Part shown: one piece after another, positions 1 through 14,023 of the stretch | Numbering within the stretch: position 1 is the stretch's first letter | Layout: each line of letters opens with the position of its first letter | Notes under the pieces: model-generated | The model's database searches: none | The model's input: only the letters and a program-made list of their open reading frames with translations | What the model was told of the DNA's origin: nothing | Position numbers and translations under genes: made by a program | Origin: Candidatus Cloacimonadales bacterium | GTDB taxonomy: Bacteria > Cloacimonadota > Cloacimonadia > G963667145 | NCBI GenBank assembly: GCA_965228195.1 | Contig: OZ245797.1 | Span: 356,383-420,382, forward strand | Direction: 5' to 3' | DNA length: 64,000 nucleotides

Positions 1-116
1 GCCAACAGATCGGTAAGCTGGGAGATTCGGGCTACAGCACCAATCCTCACCTTCATTACGAGATTCATCAAAAAGAGAAAAAACTAAATCCAGAAAATTT
101 TATAAAAGATATTTAA
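1..116 (+). CDS. M23 family metallopeptidase, C-terminal fragment (5' end outside window)
   Basis: Frame 3 reads ...QQIGKLGDSGYSTNPHLHYEIHQKEKKLNPENFIKDI*. This is the conserved C-terminal HxH region of LytM/M23 peptidases. Stop codon at 114-116. Confidence 0.6.
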   Translation, partial: QQIGKLGDSGYSTNPHLHYEIHQKEKKLNPENFIKDI

Positions 117-128
117 GGAGAAAAGGTT

Positions 129-482
129 ATGATAAAAGAAAAAAATAGAGAGGTTGAAATTTCTTCGATCATCGGCAAAGACCTGAAGATTAAAGGTGAT
201 ATCAGCGGAGAGAACGGCATAAAAATAGATGGCGACATCACCGGCAACATCGTCGGCAAATCTTTGATCTCTATCACCACCAGCGGCAAAGTGGAAGGCA
301 ACATCGATTGCAACAACTGTATCATCGCCGGGATCATCAACGGAGGCGTCAACTCCAAAGGCACCATCGAAATCAAGAAGAGTGCCAAAATAAATGGCGA
401 TATCAAAGCGGTGACCTTGATTGTGGAGCCAGGAGCGACCCTCAACGGCAACTGCACCATGGGAAAAGATGTCATCAAATAA
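129..482 (+). CDS. bactofilin (DUF583) polymer-forming cytoskeletal protein
   Basis: 117 aa with the repetitive beta-helix pattern GDISGENGIKIDGDITGNIVGKS...VEGNIDCNN...INGDIKA typical of bactofilins. AAGGAG RBS lies 8 nt upstream of the ATG. Confidence 0.8.
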   Translation: MIKEKNREVEISSIIGKDLKIKGDISGENGIKIDGDITGNIVGKSLISITTSGKVEGNIDCNNCIIAGIINGGVNSKGTIEIKKSAKINGDIKAVTLIVEPGATLNGNCTMGKDVIK

Positions 483-843
483 AGAACATTTTTTATACCT
501 TGGCAAAGTTTGCCTGCTCAGCGTGGTTTTGGCTTGCCCAGGAACTTTATTGCCCTCCGGTCTTAGCCTTTTTTTAGGACTAATTGGAGGGTTGTTTTTT
601 TTGCTGGCAACCGGCATCAGCACGCTTGTTGCCCTGTCTTCTCGCTATCGCACCAGCAAAGCGGTCATCGTCGGTTTCGGCAGCCGCTTTTTTATCGTTG
701 CTCTCTACAGCTACCTGCTTTTCTACCACCTAAATCTGGAGGTTATCGCCTACGGAGTGGGCCTACTCTTGCCCTTATTGGCTCTTTACCTCTACGAAGC
801 TTACCTGTTTTGGCTCCATCACAACCATCGGCAAAAGCGATAA
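469..843 (+). CDS. small integral membrane protein (hypothetical); likely start at the internal ATG of ORF 421..843
   Basis: Downstream of the first Met (MSSNKEH...) there are three to four hydrophobic helices. Overlaps the bactofilin stop by about 14 nt. Confidence 0.4.
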   Translation: MSSNKEHFLYLGKVCLLSVVLACPGTLLPSGLSLFLGLIGGLFFLLATGISTLVALSSRYRTSKAVIVGFGSRFFIVALYSYLLFYHLNLEVIAYGVGLLLPLLALYLYEAYLFWLHHNHRQKR

Positions 844-868
844 CTCCCGCTGGCTCTTCTTTAAACTT

Positions 869-1783
869 ATGAACCCACAAACTCTTTGCCAAAACACCAC
901 TTGGCTGGCACCGCTGGCTGGATTTACCGACTTACCTTATCGAAAGATAGCCAAAGAAAACGGCGTAGATGTGCTCACCACCGAGATGGTCAGCGCCGCA
1001 GGACTCACCTACAACCCATCAGCAAGTCTGCCTTACGCTTACACCCAAGAAGACTCCTCCCCCATCGGCGTCCAGCTCTTCGGCAGCACCCCTGCGCATT
1101 TCGTCCAAGCTATCTCCGTTTTACCCGCCATCGATTTCTTGTGCATCAATATGGGTTGCCCGGTAAAGAAGGTGGTCAAAACTGGCGCCGGATCAGCCCT
1201 GATGGACACCCCCTTGCTCGCAGCCCAGATAGTGGAAAGTTGCCGCAAATCGCTTCCTGCCAGCACGCCATTGGTGGTCAAATTCCGCTCGGGATTTTCT
1301 CGGGTAAACTACTTGCAGTTCGGGCTGAGAATGCAAGCAGCAGGAGCCGACATCTTAATCTTGCACCCTCGCACCAGGGCGCAGATGTTCACCGGTCACA
1401 GCAACTGGGAACAAATAGCCCAGCTCAAGGCGGCTTGCCAGACCCCTGTCATCGGCAACGGCGATATAAAAAGCCACGCCGATATTACCAAGATGAGACG
1501 GCAGACCAGCTGCGATGGCGTGATGATCGGACAAGGAGCCATCGGCAACCCTTGGATATTCTCACCAAACTCACCCACCAACCCCGAAAAATTAGCCACC
1601 ATCAAGAAGCACTACCGCTTGGCTATGGCTCACTACGGGCAAACCAAAGGGATCCGCACCATGCGCTCCCACATCGCCAAATACACCAAAAGTTTGCCTG
1701 GCGGCAGCATCGCCCGTCAAGAGATAAATAGCCTAACAGATTTAGAAGCTATCTTTAAGGTGTTGGAAAAAGTTTTGGCTTAG
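869..1783 (+). CDS. dus: tRNA-dihydrouridine synthase (Dus family)
   Basis: 304 aa. N-terminal LAPLAGFTDLPYR and the internal FMN-binding TIM-barrel motifs (INMGCP, GNGDI) are diagnostic of DusA/B/C enzymes. Confidence 0.85.
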   Translation: MNPQTLCQNTTWLAPLAGFTDLPYRKIAKENGVDVLTTEMVSAAGLTYNPSASLPYAYTQEDSSPIGVQLFGSTPAHFVQAISVLPAIDFLCINMGCPVKKVVKTGAGSALMDTPLLAAQIVESCRKSLPASTPLVVKFRSGFSRVNYLQFGLRMQAAGADILILHPRTRAQMFTGHSNWEQIAQLKAACQTPVIGNGDIKSHADITKMRRQTSCDGVMIGQGAIGNPWIFSPNSPTNPEKLATIKKHYRLAMAHYGQTKGIRTMRSHIAKYTKSLPGGSIARQEINSLTDLEAIFKVLEKVLA

Positions 1784-1834
1784 AGACTCACCTTATTTTT
1801 TTGCAATTCACTTTGCGGTGAGTCTCTTTTTTCG
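1783..1834 (+). terminator. putative intrinsic terminator after dus
   Basis: 11-bp perfect stem AGAGACTCACC / GGTGAGTCTCT followed by TTTTTT. The loop is long (about 23 nt), hence moderate confidence. Confidence 0.5.
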
Positions 1835-2149
1835 CCTAAAGGCGAGATATGTCACCTTTCTTTTTGTCTGAACAAAAATAATTGTGACCGAAAGAAAAAA
1901 TCAAATCAAAAGACAAAATCCTAACTTGCAAAACTTTCTCGCTGTGGCTGTAGTGCATCGTTTAGATTCTTTCCTAGCATCGCTAAAGACAGAGAAATAA
2001 ATTCCTCACACAGCCACAACTTCATTCGTTTAAACAAGTTCGACGGATTTAGTCTTGATTGATTACTAGCCCATTCCGCAGGCTTTGTCGCTCCCGCTCC
2101 AAAGCAATTGATAAGTTACATTGGATAATTGTTAATTAAAAATAAAAGT

Positions 2150-2445
2150 GAAAAAATTGACTACCACTTAGTGGGAAAAGATGGGGTGGAATTTTTCATT
2201 TTTCATTCTCAATTTTTAGTTTGGCTATGGCTCGTTAGAGGCAAAGCCTTTGGAGGGGACTACCTCCGCTTAAAGGGGTCTTCTTATTTTCTCGACATTC
2301 ATAAGCCAGTGACACTAATCACTTTCTAAGTAGAAATGCAAAGCCAAAAGCAGAAAATGACAAAATTATGGGTAATAAGCGGGAACAACCACACTTTTTT
2401 ACTCTGCTGGTGACACACCCCGTCGCTGGCGCTTTGAAGCAGAGC
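2150..2445. repeat. left arm of a large imperfect inverted repeat (partner at 8930..9200)
   Basis: The reverse complement of 2150-2445 aligns with 8930-9200. The inner about 110 bp (2340-2445 vs 8935-9050) is roughly 90% identical, e.g. ccgcttcaaagcgccagcgacgggg(c/t)gtgtcaccagcagagtaaaaaagtgtggttgttcccgcttattacccata. The outer about 190 bp is roughly 70% identical with conserved blocks (ggctttgca, tttagaaagtgatt, ccctttaagcggag, tgaaaaattccacc). Confidence 0.6.
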
Positions 2446-2525
2446 GGTTTTCTTTTCTCTCCCCTCTCTTTTCGTTGAGCGCTCAACGAAAAGAGAGGGT
2501 CCCGCTGAAAGCGACACCCCCTGCT
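2446..2525. repeat. short repeat-family element with a 38-bp perfect palindrome (copy 1)
   Basis: gagcggttttcttttctctc followed by the palindrome ccctctcttttcgttgagcgctcaacgaaaagagaggg (2462-2499), then (t/c)c(c/t)gctgaaagc. A near-identical direct copy lies at 9527-9605, and a partial inverted copy (gctttcagcaagaccctctcttttc) at 8826-8850. Confidence 0.55.
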
Positions 2526-2549
2526 GAAAGCAAATCAACTCAGTTACCA

Positions 2550-3383
2550 CTAGGTCACAAGAACACCCTTGCGGTAAGCGAAGAACATCTTGCCGTCTTT
2601 TTTCAAAACGAAGATAACGATCAACAAAAGCAGTCCGGTTTGGATGATCTTGCTGTCTGGATGAGTAGCAAAAATCTCGTTGGAGACGTTCGCCATTAAA
2701 TGAAAAACAACCGTGATGAAGATGTTGCGGTTTGTTTTGTAGTAGAGCCAATTCATCAAAATCACGAAGACAAAAATGCTGACAACGAAGTTTAAGAAGT
2801 AAATCCAGCCCTCTGCCACGATGTTGCTATGGTAATAGCCTTGCACAAACGAGAGCGGAAGGTGCCAAAAAACCCAGTAAAAAGCGAAGATTAAACAGGT
2901 ATTAAAAAGGTTGAACTTGGCTCGCAGAGCGTCCATCCCGTAAGAGTGCCAAGCTAACTCCTCGGCAAGGGGCGCAAACAGGAGTATGAACCATGGCGAT
3001 AAAAGAAAAGAGGTGAAAGTTGGCTTGCCCGAGATGTAAAACTGGTGCAAATCGTAACCAAAGAGCAAAGAGATGCACTGGGCAACTACTATCGAGACAG
3101 GCAAAAGCAAGAATGCCAGTGCCAAATAGCTCTTGTTCAGCTCCCTTAAGCCCAGCAACCTTTGGGCTAAATCTTTTTTGAGAGTTTTGTCTTTCCAAAA
3201 AAAGTATCCCGCTACCACACAAGGCGACAAAAGCCCCGTGATTGCCAAGAACTGTTGCCAGCCCAAGAGTCCAAAAGATTGATTTGGTCGGTGGCTAAGG
3301 TAAGCCAAAGCAAACCAAAAAGTCCAAGGGATGAATAAAGACAGTCCGTAAAAAGTTAATGTTTTGTTATATTTTTCTAACAT
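2550..3383 (-). CDS. CPBP family intramembrane metalloprotease (CAAX protease / Abi domain)
   Basis: 277 aa polytopic membrane protein. Conserved CPBP motifs are present: EExxW (PLAEELAWHS), FxxxH (FYWVFWHLP) and HxxxN (FHLMANVSNE). Confidence 0.75.
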   Translation of the reverse strand: MLEKYNKTLTFYGLSLFIPWTFWFALAYLSHRPNQSFGLLGWQQFLAITGLLSPCVVAGYFFWKDKTLKKDLAQRLLGLRELNKSYLALAFLLLPVSIVVAQCISLLFGYDLHQFYISGKPTFTSFLLSPWFILLFAPLAEELAWHSYGMDALRAKFNLFNTCLIFAFYWVFWHLPLSFVQGYYHSNIVAEGWIYFLNFVVSIFVFVILMNWLYYKTNRNIFITVVFHLMANVSNEIFATHPDSKIIQTGLLLLIVIFVLKKDGKMFFAYRKGVLVT

Positions 3384-3453
3384 TTTTTCCTCCGTTTTAG
3401 GTTTAACCTATTTTTTTCGTTTTTCCCACTTCACTAATTTAATTCCAAAAAAA

Positions 3454-3476
3454 TATTGACCGACGGTCAGTCAATA
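3454..3476. promoter_or_regulatory. palindromic operator candidate in the divergent CPBP/tetR intergenic region
   Basis: TATTGACCGACGGTCAGTCAATA contains the inverted repeat TGACCG-A-CGGTCA and the outer half-sites ATTGAC/GTCAAT. It lies 14 nt upstream of the tetR start. Confidence 0.35.
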
Positions 3477-3489
3477 TTTTTCTAGTTTT

Positions 3490-4194
3490 ATGATGATCAG
3501 AAAAATAAAAAAAGAAGAGACCGTAGCCAATATCCTTCATATTTCGGAAAAACTATTTTATGAACAAGGGTATGAAAAAACCTCTATCTCTCAGATCGCC
3601 AAAGAGTGCGGTTTGTCTAAAGGTGCACTGTATCACCACTTTACCTCTAAACAGCAGGTGTTAGAAAAGATCTGTCACAACCATTACGAGTTGCTGAAAG
3701 ATATTTTTTTGCCGATTGTCGCCAAGAGATCTTTGAGTATGTTCGAGCGGTTTTTGCAAATAATGAACATCGCCCGCTCTATGCAGATGAACACGGCAGC
3801 CACCACTTTTGCCAAGAGTGAAAAAGCTGACAACCATTCCCCCGAGAATGCGGCTCTAAATCAGTTATTGAACCAATATCACCAAAAAGTTTACCTGGAG
3901 ATATTCAGCTCTCTTCTGGAAGAGGGCAAAAAAAACCAAGAGTGTTCTTTCCCTTGCTCGTCGCAAACCATAGCCAACCTCGTCTTCAACCTAGACAACG
4001 GCACCAATCAAAGACTAAACCAGATCGTTTACCAAGAAAAATCTTTAAAACAGGAAAAGATGTTAAACGACACCATCGACGGGTTTGTGTTCGCTTTGGC
4101 AAATATTTTGAATATGGACACCCAAAAAATCGAAAAAATGATCTTAGCTACGAAGATGAAAGAGATATACAGATCGATCTTAAAGAAAGGATAA
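3490..4194 (+). CDS. TetR/AcrR family transcriptional regulator
   Basis: N-terminal HTH TVANILHISEKLFYEQGYEKTSISQIAKECGLSKGALYHHFTSKQQVL matches the TetR_N signature. Confidence 0.85.
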   Translation: MMIRKIKKEETVANILHISEKLFYEQGYEKTSISQIAKECGLSKGALYHHFTSKQQVLEKICHNHYELLKDIFLPIVAKRSLSMFERFLQIMNIARSMQMNTAATTFAKSEKADNHSPENAALNQLLNQYHQKVYLEIFSSLLEEGKKNQECSFPCSSQTIANLVFNLDNGTNQRLNQIVYQEKSLKQEKMLNDTIDGFVFALANILNMDTQKIEKMILATKMKEIYRSILKKG

Positions 4195-4197
4195 AGA

Positions 4198-5139
4198 ATG
4201 AATCTCAGAAAAAAAATCGCTTTATTGCTCGTTTTGACAAGCAACTATTTAATAGCCAACGAAAAATCTACCAACTACATTCCGTTGTTTCAGTCCGAAA
4301 ATCTCAATGTGAGTGAGCAAAGCCTCCAGTGCCAAAGTGCCGGCTTTGTCATCGAAAAAGAGAACTTCCTTTTTGTGGGAATTACCTCTTTCACCAAGTT
4401 TGAGCAGCAGCCTCTCTTTGAGTTCCCCAAATCTTATCTGTCAATCGATGTTTTGACCGAGTTCAAAAAGAACAGCTCGGAAATCCTTTTCATCTACAAA
4501 TCTGATGCCGACAAAACCGAAAGCTTCGAGTTGCAAACCTTACAAACGGCTTTGGTTTATGGACACAGATTTATCGACAAAGAAAACTTTCAGCTTGTGT
4601 TCGGTGGAGGTTTAGCCGTAAGCGACTTCGGCATAGAGTGTTCCGATGGCTCCACACTCCCTATGATCCCGGTGCCTTTGCTGAGGATAAACTCACACAA
4701 CCAGCTTTTTACCACTAAGTTCGAGTTTATCACCTCCCCCAATTTGGACATTACTTTTTTGCTGAGCGAACATATCAAAGCGACTTTTGAAGGGAGGTTT
4801 GACCAACTAAGAGACGAGCGAGATCTGCTTTTCGAGAGTAAACTTCACTACCGATTTTTCTCCGCTTCTGATGATCTGGGTGATATTGCCGGCGTGGCTC
4901 TCGGGTTCAAAAACGGCAATCATGGCGCCTTTAATCTGGCTAAAAGAGACAATAAAGAGAACGAAACCTTGGAGATCCAGTACCGCTCCATTTTTGCCGA
5001 GCTAGATTTGACACTGCTAAAACTCTCCGCAGGTCACGCCTTCCAAGGCAGAGAACTTTATCAAGATGGCGAGCAGCTGTCCAAGCAAAATGTTGGTGAT
5101 GGCTACTTCTGGAGCGTGCAAGCGTTATACCAGTTTTAA
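4198..5139 (+). CDS. secreted protein, probably an outer-membrane beta-barrel (hypothetical)
   Basis: Signal peptide MNLRKKIALLLVLTSNYLIANE, alternating amphipathic segments, and a C-terminal ...ALYQF with terminal aromatic Phe typical of OMP beta-signals. Starts 4 nt after the tetR stop. Confidence 0.45.
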   Translation: MNLRKKIALLLVLTSNYLIANEKSTNYIPLFQSENLNVSEQSLQCQSAGFVIEKENFLFVGITSFTKFEQQPLFEFPKSYLSIDVLTEFKKNSSEILFIYKSDADKTESFELQTLQTALVYGHRFIDKENFQLVFGGGLAVSDFGIECSDGSTLPMIPVPLLRINSHNQLFTTKFEFITSPNLDITFLLSEHIKATFEGRFDQLRDERDLLFESKLHYRFFSASDDLGDIAGVALGFKNGNHGAFNLAKRDNKENETLEIQYRSIFAELDLTLLKLSAGHAFQGRELYQDGEQLSKQNVGDGYFWSVQALYQF

Positions 5140-5224
5140 AAAAAATTATTAAAATCCAAAAAATTATTGCAAAAGGATACCAAAATATTAGCTTGACTGT
5201 TCTTTCAAGGAAAAGGAGGGAAAG

Positions 5225-5509
5225 ATGATAAAGATCCAATTTTTGATGACCATCGCATCGTCCACCGGCATCAGCAAAGCTGAATTAGATAGCAAAGAAG
5301 AGATCACCGTTCTAAAGACTTTGCAAAGGCTGGAAATTCAAGAGAAGAAGCAGATTATCGACAAAATAATGATCCCAGACAAAACCGAGTTCAAACCAGG
5401 TGTGCTAGTGCTGGCAGGCAAAGAGAACGAGCTACAACCGGCGAAGTTCGACACAATCCTAAAAAGCGACTATCTGCTTAAAGTAACCACCATCGTCGGC
5501 GGAGGCTAA
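5225..5509 (+). CDS. small protein ending in -GGG; C-terminal region resembles a ThiS/MoaD-like beta-grasp (ubiquitin-like sulfur-carrier fold)
   Basis: 94 aa. AAGGAGGG RBS lies 7 nt upstream. The C-terminus ...ILKSDYLLKVTTIVGGG resembles ThiS/MoaD termini (…ILLFQVIAGG). Its stop overlaps the RBS (GGAGG) of the downstream E1-like gene. Confidence 0.5.
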   Translation: MIKIQFLMTIASSTGISKAELDSKEEITVLKTLQRLEIQEKKQIIDKIMIPDKTEFKPGVLVLAGKENELQPAKFDTILKSDYLLKVTTIVGGG

Positions 5510-5512
5510 GAG

Positions 5513-6184
5513 TTGGAAACCATTTTTGATCGATCGACTCTGCTCTGGGGCAGGGCGGATCAAGCCAAGCTGACAAAAGCAAGAGTGGTGCTACTGGGCA
5601 TGGGCGGACTCGGCTCGGCAATCGCCCAAGTTCTGGTCAGAGCTGGAGTAGGAGAGCTGACTTTGTTCGACCAAAAGAGAGTAGATTTGCCCGATTTGGG
5701 CAGGCAACTGCTTTACACCCAAGAAGATTTGAACAAATCTAAGCTTGAGGCGGCTAAAGCTGCCATCTTGAGGATAAATCCAGACTGCATCGTCAACACA
5801 GTTTGCCAAGATATAAATAAGCTAAAAAGTTTACCCGCTGCCGACCTTTTTCTCGACTGCTTGGACAACTTTGCCACTCGCCTGAACATCTGGGAGAAGC
5901 TTCCTGCCCAAAGCTTTTTTGTCCATTGTGGCGTGCGAGCTTATCAAGGCCAGGTGATCACCTTGCAAAAAGCAGTCACCCTTGGTCTGCCAGAGCTACT
6001 ACTCTCGGGCAAAGACGACGATGAGAAAATCCCTATAGCCCCTCAGACGGTGATGTTGGCAGGATCTCTAGCGGCAGATGAGGCTATCGGTATCTTGCAA
6101 GGAAAAGCAAAACTTTTAGGGAAGCTCTTTCAGTTTGACCTGAAAAACCACAGCTTTACAACCATCGAAGGTTTCAATCTTTGA
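5513..6184 (+). CDS. ThiF/MoeB/HesA-family E1-like adenylyltransferase (minimal, no CxxC zinc motif)
   Basis: 223 aa with TTG start. It carries the nucleotide-binding VVLLGMGGLGSAIAQVLVRAGVGELTLFDQKRVDLPDLGRQ motif. LDCLDNFATRLNI...HCGVRAYQGQV aligns to MoeB VLDCTDNVAVRNQLN...SGAAIRMEGQI. There are no CxxC pairs. Confidence 0.8.
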   Translation: METIFDRSTLLWGRADQAKLTKARVVLLGMGGLGSAIAQVLVRAGVGELTLFDQKRVDLPDLGRQLLYTQEDLNKSKLEAAKAAILRINPDCIVNTVCQDINKLKSLPAADLFLDCLDNFATRLNIWEKLPAQSFFVHCGVRAYQGQVITLQKAVTLGLPELLLSGKDDDEKIPIAPQTVMLAGSLAADEAIGILQGKAKLLGKLFQFDLKNHSFTTIEGFNL

Positions 6185-6243
6185 CAACAAGCCAAGCTGA
6201 AGCTAGCGTTTGGCAGTCGGTCTTAGGGTAAAGGCGAAGCAGA

Positions 6244-6861
6244 TTATAAGACAATATCGGCGAGTTTCTTGTGCTTGACTATCTGCTTATGCTCGATTTG
6301 TAAAACTTTTTCGACGAACTCCGAGATCGGATCTCTGCCCCGCAACTGTCTGTTTTTTTTGGTCTGCAGATAAGATTTGTCGATAAAGCACCTAAAGTCA
6401 ACATTTTGCAAAAGGCTGGTGTAAGTCCCTTCCACAATTATCAAGGCAAAATCGCCAACATCCAGCACCTCTTGACCTATCTTGTCGTTTTCAAAATCTA
6501 CCAAAGGCTTTACCAGTTTTGGCGCCGACATTTTTTTTAAGATAAGCAGATGCTCATCCAGTTTGTCCAATAGAACCTCTTTTGTGCCAACATTGTCTAA
6601 AGATTTGAGACGATTTTGGTGGTTAGTTTGGGGCGGCAACTTGAAATAGTCGTCTTGACACAAAATAACGGCTTGTCCTTCTTGAAAATTTTTTGCCAAA
6701 CAGTAAGCGATCTCGCTCTTGCCACAACCCGATTCTCCTGCGATGCTTACTACAATCTTTTCTTTTTCTACCCTGTTTTTAATCTTTGCAAAGATCTTTT
6801 TGGCAGACTCGATATGAAAATCTTTTATCAATAACTTGTCCCCTTTCACTTCCAACTCCAT
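6244..6861 (-). CDS. P-loop nucleoside/nucleotide kinase (uridine kinase / phosphoribulokinase family)
   Basis: Walker A IAGESGCGKSE followed by a uridine-kinase-like fold. The N-terminus overlaps the 3' end of the upstream GT gene by about 83 nt, so the true start is uncertain. Confidence 0.6.
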   Translation of the reverse strand: MELEVKGDKLLIKDFHIESAKKIFAKIKNRVEKEKIVVSIAGESGCGKSEIAYCLAKNFQEGQAVILCQDDYFKLPPQTNHQNRLKSLDNVGTKEVLLDKLDEHLLILKKMSAPKLVKPLVDFENDKIGQEVLDVGDFALIIVEGTYTSLLQNVDFRCFIDKSYLQTKKNRQLRGRDPISEFVEKVLQIEHKQIVKHKKLADIVL

Positions 6862-8587
6862 TTTTTATATCTAAACCTTTTTTTCGTAAAAACTCGATAA
6901 GGTTTTTTATGGTCACTTGCCAACTTATCTTTTCTGAGATTTTAGTTAGCTTTTTGACATTTTCCATATTTGGCGTATCTAAAGTTTTTTTCATCAACCT
7001 TGCCAGCTCCTGCCCATCTCCGTTAGGGAAAATATCGATACAATCCGCGGCGAAATTGGTAGAAAAAGGGATAAGATCGGAAGAGATGATCTGGCTTTTG
7101 GTAGCTGAGGCTTGAGCAACACTCATCCCAAAACCTTCCATCTCTGAGGCAGAGACATATATATCGGCGATGTAAAAAACTGGTCCAATAAACTTCTGCG
7201 GAATATAGTCTAGCAAAAAAACTTTCTTTTCCAATCCTGGTTTTGCGTTTATCTGCTTCTCCAGCTCGTTATAAACCTTATTTTTTGACCCCCCACCGAT
7301 CAATAAGTAAACATCTTGGTAATCGTCACATATATTGGCAAAAGCTTCTATTATGAGATCTTTTCGCTTGGTCAGATCCATCCTACTTGTCTCAAAAATA
7401 ATCTTGCTTTTTTTTAATAGATCTGGCTTAATATCTGTCACTTCGGCTAAATATTCGTAAGCCAAACTCAGCTCTTCAGGACTATATTTCCTAAAAATAG
7501 ATTTATCTGCCTGTGGATGAAGATAAAAAATGCTCTTTTCATCAACCCGATAGTAAGAGATTAAACAGTCGGTGATTTCCGTGGAGGTTGAGATAAAAAA
7601 AGGCGTTCTGGCACAAATGTTTATCTCGTGACTGTCTCGCTCACGCAGCCGCAAAGAACTTCTGTCCGAAGCAGGAGCTCCTCTCATATTGTAGTTTTTT
7701 ATTTCGCCCAAAGAATGAGGAGTCCAGATATGTTTATTTATCTTGCTAAAGTTTGTTTTTAACTCACCTTTAAACTTTTGACAACGCTCAAATATCTTTT
7801 TCGCCAACAAGGTGATGAAATCTAGCTCTTTATAAGATTCGTCTTGAGTATTGGGCAACTCCTTGAAAATAGCGGCTAAAATTTGTTTGTTGATAAACAG
7901 CTTCTCATGGAAAACAGACTCCCAAATGTCGATGATTTGCAAAGCTTTCCGCTGGACAGACGAGCCCTTAAACTTCTTGAATAAGATCTTAACAATATGA
8001 AAAACTGGCAACTTAGAAATATCTTGCCAGTGTCGATTGCGAAACAATTTATCTTTATCTTTAGTCGATAGATAATCAGCAAAGTATTTTTCCACCAGTT
8101 CATAAACAAAATCGTTTTGCCAAAAATCTATCAAACTCATACCGATCACCCCAGCATCCCAATAGTGAGAGTTTATAAACTCAAAAACTTCCCACTCTTG
8201 GCAACCTTTTGCCTTTGCCTTGTCTTGAACAATCTTATACAGATGATGCAACTCTTGATTCAAAGCAGGAGAGATATTCTCTTTGGGCAAAAACTTATCA
8301 CCGCCTCCACACAGATACTCGTAGCGGACAAACTCGGATAAATAAGAGACTCCTTTGCGTATCTGATAACCTTTATACTTGGGAAATCCACCCCTGGAGT
8401 AGATAGAAACTTTATACCCCAGCTGCTCTAACTTTAGAGCAAGCACATTGACATACACCACCTGTCCACCAGTATCTGGCACCCCACCTATCTTTACTTG
8501 GGGCGAGGCGTAGCCGTGATTGGTGATCAAAGCTACCTCTGGACGCAAAGAGTCCTCAAACAAAAGACCGCTACCATTAAAACACAT
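6779..8587 (-). CDS. GT4 glycosyltransferase of the sucrose-phosphate-synthase / sucrose-synthase family
   Basis: 602 aa. N-terminal HGYASPQVKIGGVPDTGGQVVYV matches the SPS/SuSy GYPDTGGQVVY signature. The C-terminal E-x7-E region (EMEGFGMSVAQASA) is also present. Confidence 0.75.
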   Translation of the reverse strand: MCFNGSGLLFEDSLRPEVALITNHGYASPQVKIGGVPDTGGQVVYVNVLALKLEQLGYKVSIYSRGGFPKYKGYQIRKGVSYLSEFVRYEYLCGGGDKFLPKENISPALNQELHHLYKIVQDKAKAKGCQEWEVFEFINSHYWDAGVIGMSLIDFWQNDFVYELVEKYFADYLSTKDKDKLFRNRHWQDISKLPVFHIVKILFKKFKGSSVQRKALQIIDIWESVFHEKLFINKQILAAIFKELPNTQDESYKELDFITLLAKKIFERCQKFKGELKTNFSKINKHIWTPHSLGEIKNYNMRGAPASDRSSLRLRERDSHEINICARTPFFISTSTEITDCLISYYRVDEKSIFYLHPQADKSIFRKYSPEELSLAYEYLAEVTDIKPDLLKKSKIIFETSRMDLTKRKDLIIEAFANICDDYQDVYLLIGGGSKNKVYNELEKQINAKPGLEKKVFLLDYIPQKFIGPVFYIADIYVSASEMEGFGMSVAQASATKSQIISSDLIPFSTNFAADCIDIFPNGDGQELARLMKKTLDTPNMENVKKLTKISEKISWQVTIKNLIEFLRKKGLDIKNGVGSERGQVIDKRFSYRVCQKDLCKD

Positions 8588-8929
8588 CCGATCTCCTTTC
8601 TTATTTCCCCTTCCTTGAAAACAGTCTAAACAGCCTTAATTATCTGCTTTTCGATAATTAACTGTGTCCTCAAAATATACTTTTTTTACCGTTCGATATT
8701 CATAAACTACAGCCTTTTCTTGTCAATAGGAAAAATGAAAGAAAACGAAACTTGCCATAAAAAAGCCTTTAAAAAAGTGTCCAGTTTTTTGGGTTCATAT
8801 CACTCCTGCGGAGGGCGGACTCTTTTTGCTTTCAGCAAGACCCTCTCTTTTCTTTTTCTCCTGCGGAGGGCTCTGACCACATAAAGAGGGTCTCAAATGA
8901 TTAGCATTCTTTATGTGGTCAGACTAAAA

Positions 8930-9200
8930 AGACAGCTCCGCTTCAAAGCGCCAGCGACGGGGCGTGTCACCAGCAGAGTAAAAAAGTGTGGTTGTTCCCG
9001 CTTATTACCCATACTTTTGTCATTTTCGGCAACTGGCTTTGCACCTATATTTAGAAAGTGATTTTTGTCGCTGGCTTAACAAAGTAACGAAAACGGGCTA
9101 ATTTCCCTTTAAGCGGAGATTGTCCCCGCCAATGGTTCTGGCGAGTCAGCCAAATAAAAAATTGGAAATGAAAAGTGAAAAATTCCACCGAAACCTCACA
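8930..9200. repeat. right arm of the large imperfect inverted repeat (partner of 2150..2445)
   Basis: See feature 2150..2445. A partial inverted copy of the palindromic short repeat lies just inside at 8826-8850. A separate 15-bp-stem hairpin lies at 8877-8927 (ctgaccacataaaga ... tctttatgtggtcag). Confidence 0.6.
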
Positions 9201-9526
9201 CTTTTTTTTTGCATAGTGCTACTGATGGATTCCTGCTTTCGCTAGGAATGAGGGTGGGAGGAGAAAACAGGCTTCTTGCCCTATCCAGCTGGGCGGGATA
9301 GACTAGGTCTCACTTGCTTGCTAGAAGGGTAGGATGGTATACTCCGCTTCATCGGGGTCACTTATTTTCACTTGCTCGGTTGAGCAGAGACACTTGGCAC
9401 TCTCTTTAAGGTGTTGAAAACGCAAAGACCAAAGTGATTAGCTAGTCAGGAACAAATCTCGGAGATGCTCCCCGCCACGGTAATCTTTAAGACATCTCAC
9501 GACCTGTCTCTAGCGAGTTGAAGCGG

Positions 9527-9605
9527 AGCGGTTTTCTTTTCTCTCCCCTCTCTTTTCGTTGAGCGTTCAACGAAAAGAGAGGGTCTGGCTGAAAGCCAAA
9601 CCACC
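9527..9605. repeat. short repeat-family element with a 38-bp near-perfect palindrome (copy 2, direct)
   Basis: gagcggttttcttttctctcccctctcttttcgttgagcgttcaacgaaaagagagggtctggctgaaagc is about 95% identical to 2446-2525. Confidence 0.55.
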
Positions 9606-9780
9606 AAATCTCCACAGAAGAAAGCAATAATAATTTACTTAGCAAAATAAGGAAGAGAACGGGTGCTTACCTGCCCCGCAAAAAAATAGCTCTCTGCAAG
9701 AGATAAAGAACATTCCCCGCCGAAAGTTTTGCTATTGGAGAAAAAAAAAGCGGTGCAGTTAAAAAAGATCAGTTCTTTTA

Positions 9781-11049
9781 CTACCTTTTGCCGCGGCGAT
9801 AGCTGGGATTTTGAGCGCCTCTTTTCTTGTTGCGATTGGCAAAAAACTCCTGTTTCCGACGCTGCTTCTCTTTGTTATGCTCTCTTTTTTCCGCTGCGTT
9901 CATGGGTCTGTCGGTCTGAGGGAAAGGGTTTTCGCCGAAGACCTTAATCTTTTGCTTGATCAGCTTTTGGATATCTTCGATATAAGCGTTCTCTTCTGGC
10001 TCGCAGATGGAGATGGCGATGCCTTGCTCACCGGCTCTACCACAACGCCCGATTCTATGCACATAAGTTTCTGGCTCGTTGGGAATATCGTAGTTGATCA
10101 CATAACGAAGCTTATCGATATCTATTCCTCGGGCGGCGATGTCTGTGGCAACTAGCACCCTTAGCTGACCATCTTTGAAATCGCGCAAAGCTTTTTGACG
10201 CTGGTTTTGAGACCTATCGCCGTGGATAGCAGCGGCGTTAATTTTCTTCCTGTGCAGATTTTTCACGATGCGATTAGCGCCATGCTTGGTGCGAGAAAAA
10301 AGCAAAACCTGCTCTATTTTGTGATTCTCCAAGATGTGAAAAAGCAGCTCTTTTTTACTGCTTTTGTTGGTAGTATACAAATATTGTTGAATGGTATCCG
10401 CCGTCGAAGAGGTCGGATTGACAGACACTTTTTGGGGATTAACCAAAAGCGTTTGCGAAAACTTGACGATATTCGGGGGCATAGTTGCCGAGAAGAACAA
10501 GGTTTGCCGCTGCGTGGGCAATTTGGCGATTATCTTCTTGATATCGTGAATAAAGCCCATATCCAACATCCGATCGGCTTCGTCCAGCACGAAATATTTG
10601 ATCTCTGCAAGAGAGATGAACCCTTGATCCATCAAATCCAAAAGACGCCCTGGTGTTGCCACCAACACATCTACCCCTTGCCCCAAAGCTCTGGTTTGTG
10701 CTCCTTGAGGGACACCGCCGAAAACCACCGTATTTTTGATGCTGGTGTGTCTGCCGTAAGTGCTAAAGCTCTCACCGATCTGAATTGCCAGCTCCCTTGT
10801 CGGGGTTACCACCAAACAAGAGATCTTTCTCTTTCCCTTTGTCTTTTGCGGCTCACCCACCAGATGCTGAATAATCGGAATAGCGAAAGCCGCTGTCTTG
10901 CCCGTTCCCGTCTGCGCACTGCCTAGCACATCTTCCCTTTTTAAAATCAGGGGAATCGACTTGGCTTGAATAGAGGTAGGCTCGATATAATTTTCCTCAC
11001 TCAAAGCTTTGAGTATGGGAGGAATTAGTTTTAAATCTTTAAATTTCAT
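9781..11049 (-). CDS. DEAD-box ATP-dependent RNA helicase (RhlE/DeaD-like) with basic C-terminal tail
   Basis: Q-motif, motif I AQTGTGKT, PTRELA, the DEAD box (VLDEADRMLDMGF), SAT and HRIGRCGRAG are all present. Confidence 0.9.
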   Translation of the reverse strand: MKFKDLKLIPPILKALSEENYIEPTSIQAKSIPLILKREDVLGSAQTGTGKTAAFAIPIIQHLVGEPQKTKGKRKISCLVVTPTRELAIQIGESFSTYGRHTSIKNTVVFGGVPQGAQTRALGQGVDVLVATPGRLLDLMDQGFISLAEIKYFVLDEADRMLDMGFIHDIKKIIAKLPTQRQTLFFSATMPPNIVKFSQTLLVNPQKVSVNPTSSTADTIQQYLYTTNKSSKKELLFHILENHKIEQVLLFSRTKHGANRIVKNLHRKKINAAAIHGDRSQNQRQKALRDFKDGQLRVLVATDIAARGIDIDKLRYVINYDIPNEPETYVHRIGRCGRAGEQGIAISICEPEENAYIEDIQKLIKQKIKVFGENPFPQTDRPMNAAEKREHNKEKQRRKQEFFANRNKKRGAQNPSYRRGKR

Positions 11050-11461
11050 ATTTTTCCTTATTTATGATGCTCATCTGCTGCAAAGCATGCCGTAATGAGC
11101 TATTTTAGTTTTTTTTCACTTTAGAAGAAAAGCGAGCTATCGCCATTATTTTTATTAGCGACTTCTTTGCTAGGTTTTTCTTGGATTTGAGAAGATTTGA
11201 GAAGCGACCTGCTTTGCATATTTTTAAAGTAGGCGTTATTTTTTTCTGACAAGAAGATGTGGAAAACTCAAAAAAGGTTGATAGAGTTGGTTTGAAGATA
11301 GCTGTAAAGTTAAGCTTAAGCTCTCTTAGTTTTTAAAAATATTAAGCAATTAGTAGTTGGTGTAGAAGTGGCAGATTGCGAGATAGTTGAAGCGGGCTAA
11401 AAACCTTAATACTTAACATATCGTCTGCCGTTACTTATACAAAGTGTTAGCAACAGTAATT

Positions 11462-12847
11462 TTATTTTCCAGTAATTTTAATTAATTTTATAGAAATTTT
11501 TTGTCCCATTAAAGCTGCTAAAAATCCAAAGATATAAGCCCAAGGACCTAGAGTTGGTACAAATATTTTTAAAAGTAGATATACAACAAATCCACTAATA
11601 ATTCCTAATGAAGAAGCTGTATTAACAGGTTCTTTTATCATTATTGCAGAAAATATTGAAGGCAATAAAATCACCATTATTTTAAAACCTTCCGTAATAA
11701 GAGATACAATATTGGGTTGTACTATCGCTAATATTGTACTAATAAGTGAAATAATAAAGGAAACTAAAATAATAGAATTAGAATTATTATTTTTTAATAA
11801 ATTCCATGCTTTTAACGATTGTATTATTGCACTTGCAGAAGCATTTAGTACTGTATCCGCACTACTAAAAACAGCAAAGAGAAAAGCAACTATTGCAAAT
11901 CCAAAAATAATTTCATTCAATATTGTTCCATTACCTAATAAATATTTCTCAAATAAATGAAATAAGTCGTTAGAACCTTCCAATTTATTTGACAAACCAA
12001 TAAGGAGTAACATAAAGAAAACAAATAGAAGTATGAACCCAGATATTATATATGCTCGTTTTGCAACAATATCTGTTTTAGCCGTGAAGATTCTTTGCCA
12101 GTGGTCTAATCGAAGAAGTAAAGTAGGAAAAACAAACAAAGAAAGCCATATAAAATAACTAGTCAATGACTGATTAGCAAATGGATTCCAATATGACGTT
12201 TCGACTAAAGACAAATCAACAGGCGATTTGAACATTATTAAAAATATCGCTGTTAAGAGAATGACCAAAACAGCAATAAATTGTATAATATCACTTTTTA
12301 ATACTGAACGAAATCCACCAATTGAAACATATATATAAATAGTTATAGAAGAAATAACTATTAACCAATTTGAATCTATATTTATATGCAAAACTTTAAT
12401 TAATGAAGCCATAGCTACATATTGAGCTGCAAGAAATCCAATATAAATGACTCCATATGAAAAGATTATACCCCCCCATGTAACTTTATTATATTTTTTA
12501 GCAAGTAATAACGGAAAAGATATATTATGATTATCATCAATTAAACCTCTTTCTTGCATATTTCGACCTATCCTTCTAATATATTTTGCAAAAAAACCCA
12601 ATCCAATAAATGAAAGACAGTATACAATAGCTAATAAAATACCTATTATACCGGACGAAGAACCAAATTGAATTAGTCCAAATATTAATCCTCCACCTAT
12701 CGCAGTAGCTAACAATGTAGACATTAAAGGAATTAGTCCAACACTATTGGGCTTTCCTAAATGAAGGTTTAAATCAGTTGTCCTTTCTTTTAATGCTCTG
12801 ATAATTAAAAAAACAAGAGCAATAGCGATGATTATTTTATACGTCAT
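11462..12847 (-). CDS. sodium:solute symporter family (SSF) transporter
   Basis: 461 aa, about 12 TM segments. Contains the SSF-like motifs GGFRSVLKSDIIQ, RLDHWQRIFTAK and FSSADTVLNASASA. Coding is strongly AT-rich relative to its flanks. Confidence 0.65.
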   Translation of the reverse strand: MTYKIIIAIALVFLIIRALKERTTDLNLHLGKPNSVGLIPLMSTLLATAIGGGLIFGLIQFGSSSGIIGILLAIVYCLSFIGLGFFAKYIRRIGRNMQERGLIDDNHNISFPLLLAKKYNKVTWGGIIFSYGVIYIGFLAAQYVAMASLIKVLHINIDSNWLIVISSITIYIYVSIGGFRSVLKSDIIQFIAVLVILLTAIFLIMFKSPVDLSLVETSYWNPFANQSLTSYFIWLSLFVFPTLLLRLDHWQRIFTAKTDIVAKRAYIISGFILLFVFFMLLLIGLSNKLEGSNDLFHLFEKYLLGNGTILNEIIFGFAIVAFLFAVFSSADTVLNASASAIIQSLKAWNLLKNNNSNSIILVSFIISLISTILAIVQPNIVSLITEGFKIMVILLPSIFSAIMIKEPVNTASSLGIISGFVVYLLLKIFVPTLGPWAYIFGFLAALMGQKISIKLIKITGK

Positions 12848-13466
12848 AATATTTTATTTTTTCCTCAATTGATGCGTAAAAACCTGTTAATAAGAACCAA
12901 ACAGTAAAAATTGTTAAATGAATACATGAACCGATTTCAAGAGATAAAATACTGTTATTAACAAATTTGCATGTAATTGGCAATATTATGAATGAAATTA
13001 TTGATAACATTATAATAAAGTATAATAAAGCTCTTACTACTAGTTCCGAGCCACCTTTTTCAATTGCTTCTTCTACATATTCATCAAAAATAGACCAAAA
13101 TGATTTATTAAAGATATAGAAAAGAATTATAACAAATAAAGCTAGTATTGCTAGTAATATTCCAATACTAAAGAGACTTGAATGATTAACAGAAAGACTA
13201 CTAAATGAAAAAGCAATATTAATTATAACCCAAAGTATAAATGTGAAAATACTCGTATTATTTTTTATAAATTTTGGGACATATATGCTAAATAAACCAA
13301 AAATTAGGGAGAATAGTATACTTACAAAAGAAAGTGAAGTAATTAAATTAGAAGTATCCCCTGATGTAAGCAGAGTAACTGTTATAGCCATAGGTACTCC
13401 AAAAACAATTTCAATCATTGTTGATACAGAACTCGGCAAAGGGTTTTTAAGCATTTTTATTATCAT
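12837..13466 (-). CDS. hypothetical polytopic membrane protein
   Basis: 209 aa with several hydrophobic helices. Overlaps the downstream SSF gene by 11 nt. AT-rich. Confidence 0.4.
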   Translation of the reverse strand: MIIKMLKNPLPSSVSTMIEIVFGVPMAITVTLLTSGDTSNLITSLSFVSILFSLIFGLFSIYVPKFIKNNTSIFTFILWVIINIAFSFSSLSVNHSSLFSIGILLAILALFVIILFYIFNKSFWSIFDEYVEEAIEKGGSELVVRALLYFIIMLSIISFIILPITCKFVNNSILSLEIGSCIHLTIFTVWFLLTGFYASIEEKIKYYDV

Positions 13467-13954
13467 AGCTGTAAATCTTTAATTATATAGCCAATACCTT
13501 TTGAATAAAAGTATTTTTGGGAGTAAGCCTCAAATAAAACAATACATTTTTTGGATTGACTTCGGATTTTAAGAATCTTTGTTTCTATACAGATTTCATT
13601 GCACAACGGAATCGGTTTAATTATTTTAGTTTCAATTTTGGGAACAAGACAATAACCTTCTTCAACAAGAAATCTAAACCCTTTAATTGACCCCCAAAAT
13701 CCGTTAATCTGGTTTTTGCTAATTTCATTATCCAAGTGTACAATTAATGATTGCTCAATCCCTAAATTTATTAAATTCAAGCTAGAATATTGCATTCTAG
13801 TATTTGTAAAAGGGTAACTATCAAATGAGGCTTTAAACAAATAATTAGACTTGTCTATGACTTTTTCTATAGATTTTATTAATCTATATTCAGTTTTATA
13901 TGCATTTAAAGCATATCCGATTAATGTTCCTTTCATTAGAGTTTGTTTATTCAT
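13463..13954 (-). CDS. hypothetical protein
   Basis: 163-aa ORF, AT-rich, no recognisable motif. Overlaps the next gene by 4 nt (operonic). Confidence 0.4.
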   Translation of the reverse strand: MNKQTLMKGTLIGYALNAYKTEYRLIKSIEKVIDKSNYLFKASFDSYPFTNTRMQYSSLNLINLGIEQSLIVHLDNEISKNQINGFWGSIKGFRFLVEEGYCLVPKIETKIIKPIPLCNEICIETKILKIRSQSKKCIVLFEAYSQKYFYSKGIGYIIKDLQL

Positions 13955-14023
13955 ATGCAGTATCCTATTTCTATTGTGCTAAAGTGTTAATATATGTCAT
14001 ATGTCGTTTATTCCTTCTTTATA

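Follow-up and report, generated by a model that had tools for sequence, protein, structure and literature searches.

In a 64,000-nucleotide stretch of the genome of a Candidatus Cloacimonadales bacterium (contig OZ245797.1, positions 356,383 to 420,382; this whole stretch is referred to here as the window), a 6.5-kb block of genes lies between dus and a gene for a DEAD-box helicase and is flanked by two long inverted repeats. This geometry raises the question of whether the repeats are the ends of a segment that moves or inverts, or whether they have another origin. Judged by its sequence, the inverted repeat is made up of two members of a local set of three: a non-coding module of ~300 bases, rich in hairpins and closed by a predicted terminator, is present here in three copies. 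We favor, with a probability of roughly 0.55, the reading that the arms are paralogous copies of this structured, terminator-ended module, probably genes for small RNAs (sRNAs) read inward, and that they were duplicated into rearrangement junctions.

The repeat itself is real and far above chance. The left arm (L, 2185-2454) aligned with the reverse complement of 8926-9189 (the right arm, R) at 80.9% identity over 272 columns (blastn, E 4e-69), and a repeat search returned arm segments of 168 nt at 86% and 42 nt at 88% identity. In global alignments, the inner 120 nt of the arm (2335-2454) were 90.0% identical between L and R and free of gaps, whereas the outer 150 nt (2185-2334) were 74.3% identical with 10 gap columns. 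The figures of about 90% and about 70% given in the initial annotation were, thus, accurate. A run of 49 identical bases was located within the inner part. The same annotation had put the length of the arms at 300-400 bp. However, past 2185 and 9189 the identity between L and R fell to 46%, the level of shuffled sequence, and the arms are therefore ~270 bp long.

Only the two arms had been described at first, and a third copy, R2, carrying a second full palindrome, had been overlooked. Positions 2414-2521 recur in direct orientation at 9498-9605 with 87-88% identity (blastn and repeat search), and a three-way alignment identified the latter segment as the 3' end of this diverged copy. The cores of L and R2 were 57.5% identical, as opposed to 49.4 ± 1.9% (maximum 54.7%) for shuffled sequences, and the identity over the last 103 nt was 88%. 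The islands that R2 has in common with both arms are CTCCGCTTnAnnGG, CTTATTTTC, CAGnGACA, CACTyTCT and TTGAAGCnGAGCGGTTTTCTT. A gapped pattern placed on two islands matched three times in the 64 kb, at L, R and R2, with 0.00 matches expected. Profile searches recovered L (nhmmer match 2180-2462, E 4e-87; 217 bits with the covariance model R1) as well as R2 (nhmmer E 2e-71; covariance model 171 bits). R2 has the same orientation as L and stands head-to-head with R, their 5' ends being ~70-150 nt apart. The locus is best described as a three-member family arranged L> ... <R R2>, not as a pair of termini. The three copies are listed below in window coordinates; P1 is the helix that closes the fold.

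2185..2454, plus strand: copy L, the left arm, composed of a 5' AT-rich extension (2185-2261) and the core unit (2262-2450)
8926..9189, minus strand: copy R, the right arm, with the core unit at 9120-8930, P1 at 9118-9106 / 8948-8936 and a covariance model score of 205 bits
~9258..9546, plus strand: copy R2, the third and diverged copy, with the core unit at 9340-9534, P1 at 9342-9354 / 9516-9528 and a T-run at 9532-9545

When the three copies were folded together with RNAalifold, their common core of ~190 nt was predicted to form three nested helices, P1, P2 and P3. P1 joins the complementary ends of the core (CTCCGCTT.. and ..AAGCGGAG), where CTCCGCTT(A/C)A.. pairs with ..TGAAGCGGAG. It consists of 8-10 contiguous pairs, extended to 12-13, and the two islands used as search anchors are complementary to one another as its two strands. 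P2 is formed by GCCAGYGAC and GTCGCTGGC, and one and the same pair of it reads C-G in R but U.G in L and A-U in R2. P3 has eight pairs, three of which are altered on both sides in R2 with pairing retained. The conserved islands that had been seen in the outer part of the arms turned out to be the 5' strands of P1, P2 and P3. The positions of these helices in L, and of the terminator-like hairpins in L and R, are as follows.

2264..2276, plus strand: 5' strand of helix P1 in L, CTCCGCTTAAAGG, which pairs with 2432-2444; the complementary islands are present in all three copies
2305..2313, plus strand: 5' strand of helix P2 in L, GCCAGTGAC, which pairs with 2422-2430 (GTCGCTGGC)
2326..2334, plus strand: 5' strand of helix P3 in L, which pairs with 2403-2410
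2430..2460, plus strand: terminator-like hairpin of L, CGCTTTGAAGCAGAGCG followed by GTTTTCTTTTCTCT, found by the terminator scan on the plus strand only (flagged at 2430-2446(+))
8949-8935, minus strand: terminator-like hairpin and T-run of R, found by the terminator scan

In the 30-pair model of P1-P3, 87.8% of the 90 cells could pair, as opposed to 37-46% when the 3' partners were slid by 1-3 columns. Five of the 30 pairs changed on both sides, and 5 of 500 column shuffles reached the observed values; all these figures describe three sequences from one genome and a structure derived from the same sequences. The compensatory changes in P2 and P3 suggest that pairing in the modeled helices is under selection. 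The minimum free energy (MFE) folds of R and R2 taken alone also closed with P1, which was 10 bp long in R2. P1 has a competitor in a local hairpin (CUCC..GGGG plus a U-run), which spans 2262-2279 of L and, in R2, 9341-9358.

The T-run directly follows the 3' strand of P1 and is found on one strand only, as GGTTTTCTTTTCTCT in L, TGTCTTTTTAG in R and GGTTTTCTTTTCTCT in R2; after P1, R2 has the same GGTTTTCTTTT as the other copies. A GC-rich hairpin with a U-run at its 3' side on one strand, the hallmark of an sRNA with an intrinsic terminator, was present at both L and R, and R2 carries the same T-run. Since hairpin and T-run lie at the inner ends and on one strand, the copies would be read inward (L on the plus, R on the minus and R2 on the plus strand). 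The upstream gene dus has its own strong intrinsic terminator at 1784-1835 (AGAGACTCACC...GGTGAGTCTCT followed by T5), and L is therefore not simply the 3' untranslated region of dus.

An outward direction of transcription had been proposed from a TAnnTTTG-like motif in the inner part of the arms. The motif is present, a few bases away from where it had been placed, at 9012-9019(+) and 2361-2368(-). It is not enriched in the window, with 69 occurrences against 57 ± 9 expected, and the rRNA and tRNA-Lys promoters of this genome have (g)TTGACAC -35 boxes. For both reasons, the motif is not evidence of an outward promoter, and the strand signal of the arms points inward. TAnnTTTG as a promoter of the Bacteroidetes type was rejected on the same grounds, the strong promoters being of the TTGACA type.

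The module appears to be non-coding. A 66-amino-acid open reading frame (ORF) in L (2129-2329) and a 45-amino-acid ORF in R (9188-9051) are in the same frame at the start and at the end and in different frames across the island that is conserved best. An inner ORF of 18/25 amino acids is intact in L (2336-2413) and R (9044-8967) and absent from R2, so that a comparison of the copies found no ORF kept across all three. None of six arm ORFs had a convincing match in Pfam, and a profile of the antisense 54/55-amino-acid ORF retrieved just two repetitive, unrelated proteins out of 1.84 billion. In Rfam, nothing reached the gathering score across the whole window, and at E<=10 the two intergenic regions gave spurious microRNA-type matches to the palindrome only.

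Nor were further members of the family detected. Neither blastn nor nhmmer nor the covariance model R1 detected another copy in the 56 kb of the window outside this locus or in the ~220 kb of loci fetched from relatives and elsewhere. The relatives' loci were reached through protein homologs of the helicase, the glycosyltransferase of the block and dus; the relatives' complete genomes are ~1.56 Mb. The gapped pattern had 8 matches in the GTDB species genomes and 4 in the JGI metagenomes, two collections that do not include the source genome; all were chance matches with no similarity past the anchors. Among viral contigs, both the conserved 20-mer and the palindrome had 0 matches, and a blastn search of plasmids and phages in 'distant' mode returned no match. 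The repeat family looks specific to this species, as judged from ~4% of its genome.

Small palindromes and hairpins accompany the copies. The initial annotation had reported a palindromic element at each inner end, complete on the left, partial and inverted on the right, and this was borne out. The full element resembles repetitive extragenic palindromic (REP) sequences; it is followed by GCTGAAAGC mini-hairpins that reach ~2531, and its second full copy lies ~200 nt past the helicase stop. The partial copy comprises the right half of the palindrome and the GCTGAAAGC motif that follows it.

2462..2499, no strand: perfect REP-like palindrome of 38 nt, with arms of 19+19 nt that are 100% complementary
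9546..9583, no strand: second full 38-nt palindrome, attached to R2 and 97% identical to 2462-2499
8828..8855, minus strand: partial palindrome module (right half) beside R, 89% complementary to 2485-2512 and 91% to 9569-9600
8872..8923, no strand: hairpin TCTGACCACATAAAGA...TCTTTATGTGGTCAGA beside R, in place of the left half of the palindrome, with 16-nt arms that are 100% complementary
9222..9252, no strand: small hairpin GATGGATTCC..GGAATGAGGG in the interval that separates R from R2 at their 5' ends

Relatives of the hairpin at 8872-8923 were seen at 1540-1591 in L024 and after dus in L025, two of the fetched loci (denoted here by L and a number). Of the hairpin at 9222-9252, 23 nt recur without a mismatch in L024 (1407-1429), and dus in L025 is followed by a sequence that resembles it. 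The families of small intergenic hairpins recognized in this lineage are TCTGAC(C)ACA..TGTGGTCAGA, GATGGATTCC..GGAATGAGGG and, in L024, units of GTAG plus a palindrome like those of classical REPs; further hairpin sites are at 1770-1800 and 1960-1985 of L024 and at ~10990-11155 of L025. Thus, the lineage as a whole carries REP-like intergenic hairpins.

We next consider the genes between the arms, which were as originally described (Pfam and NCBIfam).

2550..8587, genes on both strands: CPBP (minus), tetR (plus), a 313-amino-acid protein (plus), a 94-amino-acid protein ending in GGG (plus), a ThiF/E1-like protein (plus), a P-loop kinase (minus) and a GT4 glycosyltransferase (minus)

In L014, whose helicase is 82% identical at the amino acid level, the helicase is followed downstream by genes for a 250-amino-acid protein, a nitroreductase, a 159-amino-acid protein, a 315-amino-acid protein (minus), tetR (minus) and CPBP (plus). 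The last three have the same orientation relative to the helicase as in the window, and there is no repeat. This locus is without the glycosyltransferase, kinase, ThiF-like and 94-amino-acid genes, and Fer4/AFOR genes replace dus. In L013, the genes for the 315-amino-acid protein and tetR are flanked by two transposase genes. The closest relative, L011 (helicase 92% identical), has no block gene after the helicase, and in its genome dus, followed by LptF/G, is ~515 kb from the helicase, whereas the two genes are 8 kb apart in the window. The glycosyltransferase was found in none of the three relatives' genomes, and together with the kinase it forms a separate two-gene module that has other contexts in L016 and L019. 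In the comparison of synteny that had been proposed for this block, CPBP, tetR and the 313-amino-acid gene are thus kept near the helicase in L014, in the same orientation and without repeats, and the glycosyltransferase-kinase pair occurs elsewhere. Gene order indicates that the block is not a unit; one part of it is ancestral and the others were added later, which makes it a mosaic.

Nucleotide homology with the relatives ended at 9786 (the helicase stop) and at 1771-1776 (the dus stop), with a third end at 2614, ~60 nt inside the 3' end of CPBP. Thus, each copy abuts a synteny breakpoint. The protein-level comparison found no other neighbors shared with the relatives, which have no repeats at the corresponding places. 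Pfam searches of all ORFs revealed no recombinase or transposase encoded within positions 1-14000 of the window, and the GC content of the block (38-47%) is not distinct from that of its flanks. Two contigs of the same strain from another sample, L001 and L015, have the orientation of the window at both arms.

The favored reading, that the copies are structured and probably transcribed modules placed at rearrangement junctions, would account for the locus in the following way. The core of ~190 nt would fold as a rod closed by the 12-13-bp helix P1, with P2 and P3 nested inside; the U/T-run would come next and, in L and R2, the 38-nt REP-like palindrome. Each copy would be transcribed in the inward direction, as an sRNA gene or at the minimum as a structured element, and would be equipped with its own intrinsic terminator. 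The duplicated units would be chromosome segments of ~330 bp that comprise core, T-run and palindrome, and the inverted geometry would be a by-product of the segmental duplication of the module into rearrangement junctions. The near-identity of L and R in the 3' two-fifths may stem from gene conversion, from stronger constraint or from both. L resembles R in the core (90%) and R2 in the part with terminator and palindrome (88%), a mosaic similarity that points to exchange among the copies.

Several observations weigh against this reading. A consensus scan found a convincing promoter for L or R in neither direction. The sole good sigma-70-like site was found by eye at R2 (TTGCTT-N18-TGgTATACT, 9315-9343) and would start transcription after the 5' strand of P1, which counts against the simple interpretation of P1 as an RNA helix. 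With MFE z-scores between -0.1 and -1.9, the folding of the core is nothing out of the ordinary, the asymmetry of G.U versus A.C pairs favors the proposed strand by just 8 to 4, and the covariation statistics of P1-P3 are weak, since they come from only three sequences of one genome. The loci of the relatives and all the collections searched yielded no homolog, and there is therefore no sign of conservation beyond one species. The count of three copies covers the 64-kb window, which is ~4% of the 1.56-Mb genome. A more far-reaching proposal can be made only tentatively and is, in our judgment, possible but doubtful: that L, R and R2 are an expressed, previously undescribed, lineage-specific family of rod-shaped ~190-nt sRNAs whose copies seed or mark large rearrangements, and that the 6.5-kb block may still be inverted from time to time by exchange between L and R.

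A competing explanation, which we consider rather unlikely, is that the copies are DNA repeats without an RNA function, akin to REPs and bacterial interspersed mosaic elements (BIMEs) or to miniature inverted-repeat transposable elements (MITEs). The terminal inverted repeats CTCCGCTT../..AAGCGGAG would then be protein-binding ends, and the hairpin repeat, selfish or structural, would spread through recombination or with the help of a transposase supplied in trans. REPs are imperfect palindromes of 20-40 nt, often with a GTAG head, that occur in many intergenic copies in genomes that encode a REP-associated tyrosine transposase (RAYT); MITEs have fixed ends, terminal inverted repeats, target-site duplications and many dispersed copies. 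Like REPs, BIMEs and bacterial MITEs such as Correia, ERIC and RUP, the copies here are intergenic repeats that can form hairpins and whose ends are complementary. In the manner of a MITE, the core is complementary over 12-13 bp at its ends and contains subterminal inverted repeats, and the copies are located in 3' intergenic regions between convergent genes, at rearrangement breakpoints, and are accompanied by other small palindromes in a lineage whose relatives are rich in REP-like hairpins (GTAG plus a palindrome in L024). The failure of the consensus scan to find a promoter for L and R and the weak MFE z-scores also count in favor of a DNA repeat. On the other hand, the ends of the core show no target-site duplications (the flanks are TAC|..|CGG, AAT|..|CTG and ATA|..|CGG), and the homology between L and R continues for 80 nt past the putative terminal repeat, with the palindrome also included. 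Thus, the duplicated unit is a chromosome segment that outruns the complementary ends, not an element with fixed ends. The three copies lie within 7.4 kb, with none in the other 56 kb or the ~220 kb of fetched loci, and no RAYT or transposase is encoded nearby. Compensatory changes in P2 and P3 and a T-run on one strand only likewise weigh against this explanation. The 38-nt palindrome fits a REP in size and location, but the 190-nt core is too long for one.

Other explanations concern the block as a whole or the peptide within the arms. The suggestion that the segment is invertible or was once mobile is unsupported, whereas the accompanying suggestion of an ancient inverted duplication of a region bearing a non-coding RNA came close to the evidence. 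With three copies, no recombinase or transposase in 1-14000, the same orientation without a repeat in L014, a separate glycosyltransferase-kinase module and a single orientation in L001 and L015, the block does not appear to be a unit that transposes or is programmed to invert. It is also improbable that the block is flipped by homologous recombination between its arms, as standing heterogeneity or in a past inversion. Inverted arms of ~270 bp with 49 identical bases within 120 nt at 90% identity would be enough for a RecA-dependent exchange, the similarity of the arms is consistent with gene conversion between them, and the arms sit at synteny breakpoints. However, L001 (covering the L core, the palindrome and CPBP) and L015 (R2, R and the glycosyltransferase) were both in the orientation of the window, and so was the group of the 313-amino-acid gene, tetR and CPBP relative to the helicase in L014. 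Pfam found no site-specific recombinase nearby, and an inversion would have no evident regulatory effect, because each gene keeps its own upstream region. The phage P1 C segment with Cin, the Mu G segment with Gin, shufflons and invertons similarly consist of a multi-kb segment between inverted repeats of a few hundred base pairs; unlike them, this locus has no recombinase gene in 1-14000, no second orientation seen, arms just 81% identical, and no promoter or split-gene logic for inversion to switch. Equally hard to defend is the idea that the copies are genes for small proteins, such as type I toxin-antitoxin-like loci in which the inner part encodes MTK(L/V)WVISGNNHTFLLCW, 18 amino acids long (25 from an upstream start), with an antisense RNA arising from the outward motif. 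L and R both have this ORF intact, with almost no differences, and the terminator comes after it, and type I toxin-antitoxin loci are frequently multi-copy and intergenic. Yet it is missing from R2, the frame of the longer ORFs is not the same throughout in L and R, the peptide has no hydrophobic membrane helix and has GNNH in mid-sequence, and neither the 1.84 billion proteins nor Pfam contained a homolog; TAnnTTTG is unsupported as a promoter motif in this genome, and L and R are so nearly identical that they provide no test of synonymous versus non-synonymous change. Delivery of the entire block by a composite transposon or a genomic island, with the arms as its terminal inverted repeats, fits the geometry alone, and the glycosyltransferase, kinase, ThiF-like and 94-amino-acid genes are indeed absent at this locus in the three closest genomes. 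Such an origin is nonetheless very improbable: there is no transposase or integrase in 1-14000 and there are no direct repeats flanking the arms, CPBP, tetR and the 313-amino-acid gene are ancestral beside the helicase in L014 and L013, the glycosyltransferase and kinase move as their own two-gene module, the third copy lies outside the supposed element, and the GC content of the block is like that of its flanks.

Among known RNAs, the copies, read as sRNA genes, are most readily compared with sibling sRNAs, the multi-copy trans-acting sRNAs with an intrinsic terminator. They are similarly ~190-310 nt long and intergenic, with a 3' hairpin and a U-run, and form several diverged paralogs close together with helices apparently kept by compensatory change. 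Unlike sibling sRNAs, they are known from the sequence of one genome alone, no promoter was found for L or R, and the three paralogs share the basal helices only, with no common single-stranded 'seed'. A rod-like RNA of ~190 nt with a long closing helix is also reminiscent of 6S RNA, which has paralogs in some bacteria. However, there was no match to 6S in Rfam even at E<=10, instead of a central bubble there is a very lopsided internal loop between P1 and P2 (30 nt versus 1 nt), and three copies would be unusual. Elements of this kind are already known: structured repeats present in several intergenic copies, or sibling sRNAs, located at junctions of rearrangements. The family described here is a new one, absent from Rfam and with no detectable relatives.

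If transcribed, the copies would constitute a new sRNA family, outside current RNA libraries, in a lineage that is related to Cloacimonadota, has small genomes and has received little study. Even if untranscribed, they provide a clean example of a short structured repeat located exactly at gene-order breaks between close relatives, and the locus is useful for understanding how such compact genomes are reshuffled. It also cautions against taking a group of genes for a mobile or invertible element just because long inverted repeats enclose it.

Several of the retrieved sequences were themselves palindromic. The low-coverage linear metagenome contigs L001/L002, L015, L019 and L027 are inverted duplications with a unique central loop, and the fold-back junctions in window coordinates are 7788|6971 in L001 and 5770|7340 in L015. 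A biological hotspot in the glycosyltransferase gene, considered for L001, L015 and L019, was rejected, as the junctions differ and L027 has the same artefact at dus. These fold-back contigs are most likely chimeras of library preparation or assembly; they were retrieved preferentially because truncated chimeric proteins are unique look-up keys.

Within the block, the gene for the 94-amino-acid protein (5225-5509, ending in ...TIVGGG*) is directly upstream of that for a 223-amino-acid ThiF/MoeB/E1-like adenylyltransferase (5513-6184). This arrangement suggests a ubiquitin-like or sulfur-carrier pair. Both genes are absent from the corresponding loci of the three relatives.

Downstream of the block, positions 11000-14000 of the window, between the helicase and the rRNA operon, have a GC content of 27-29%, as opposed to 44% for the whole window. 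This stretch encodes an SSF-like transporter (11462-12847, minus strand) and a 209-amino-acid membrane protein (12837-13466, minus strand). The same slot in L011 holds a Transposase_mut gene and an integrase fragment, and 11000-14000 looks like a variable, horizontally acquired slot. The 23S rRNA gene of L011 contains an insertion of ~280 bp (3276-3555; window 17600|17641) that encodes an 84-amino-acid GIY-YIG protein and is absent from the 23S rRNA gene of the window; a group I intron that carries a homing endonuclease is the probable identity of this insertion.

The two genes that flank the block differ in their affinities. The DEAD-box helicase (9781-11049) has its best matches outside the small-genome clade, at 75-78% amino acid identity, in Bacteroidota such as Flagellimonas, Muriicola and Carboxylicivirga. 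The named matches of dus were to Cloacimonadota at ~50% identity, which points to a Cloacimonadota-related lineage. The contrast between the two genes suggests that the helicase either is conserved to an unusual degree or was transferred horizontally.

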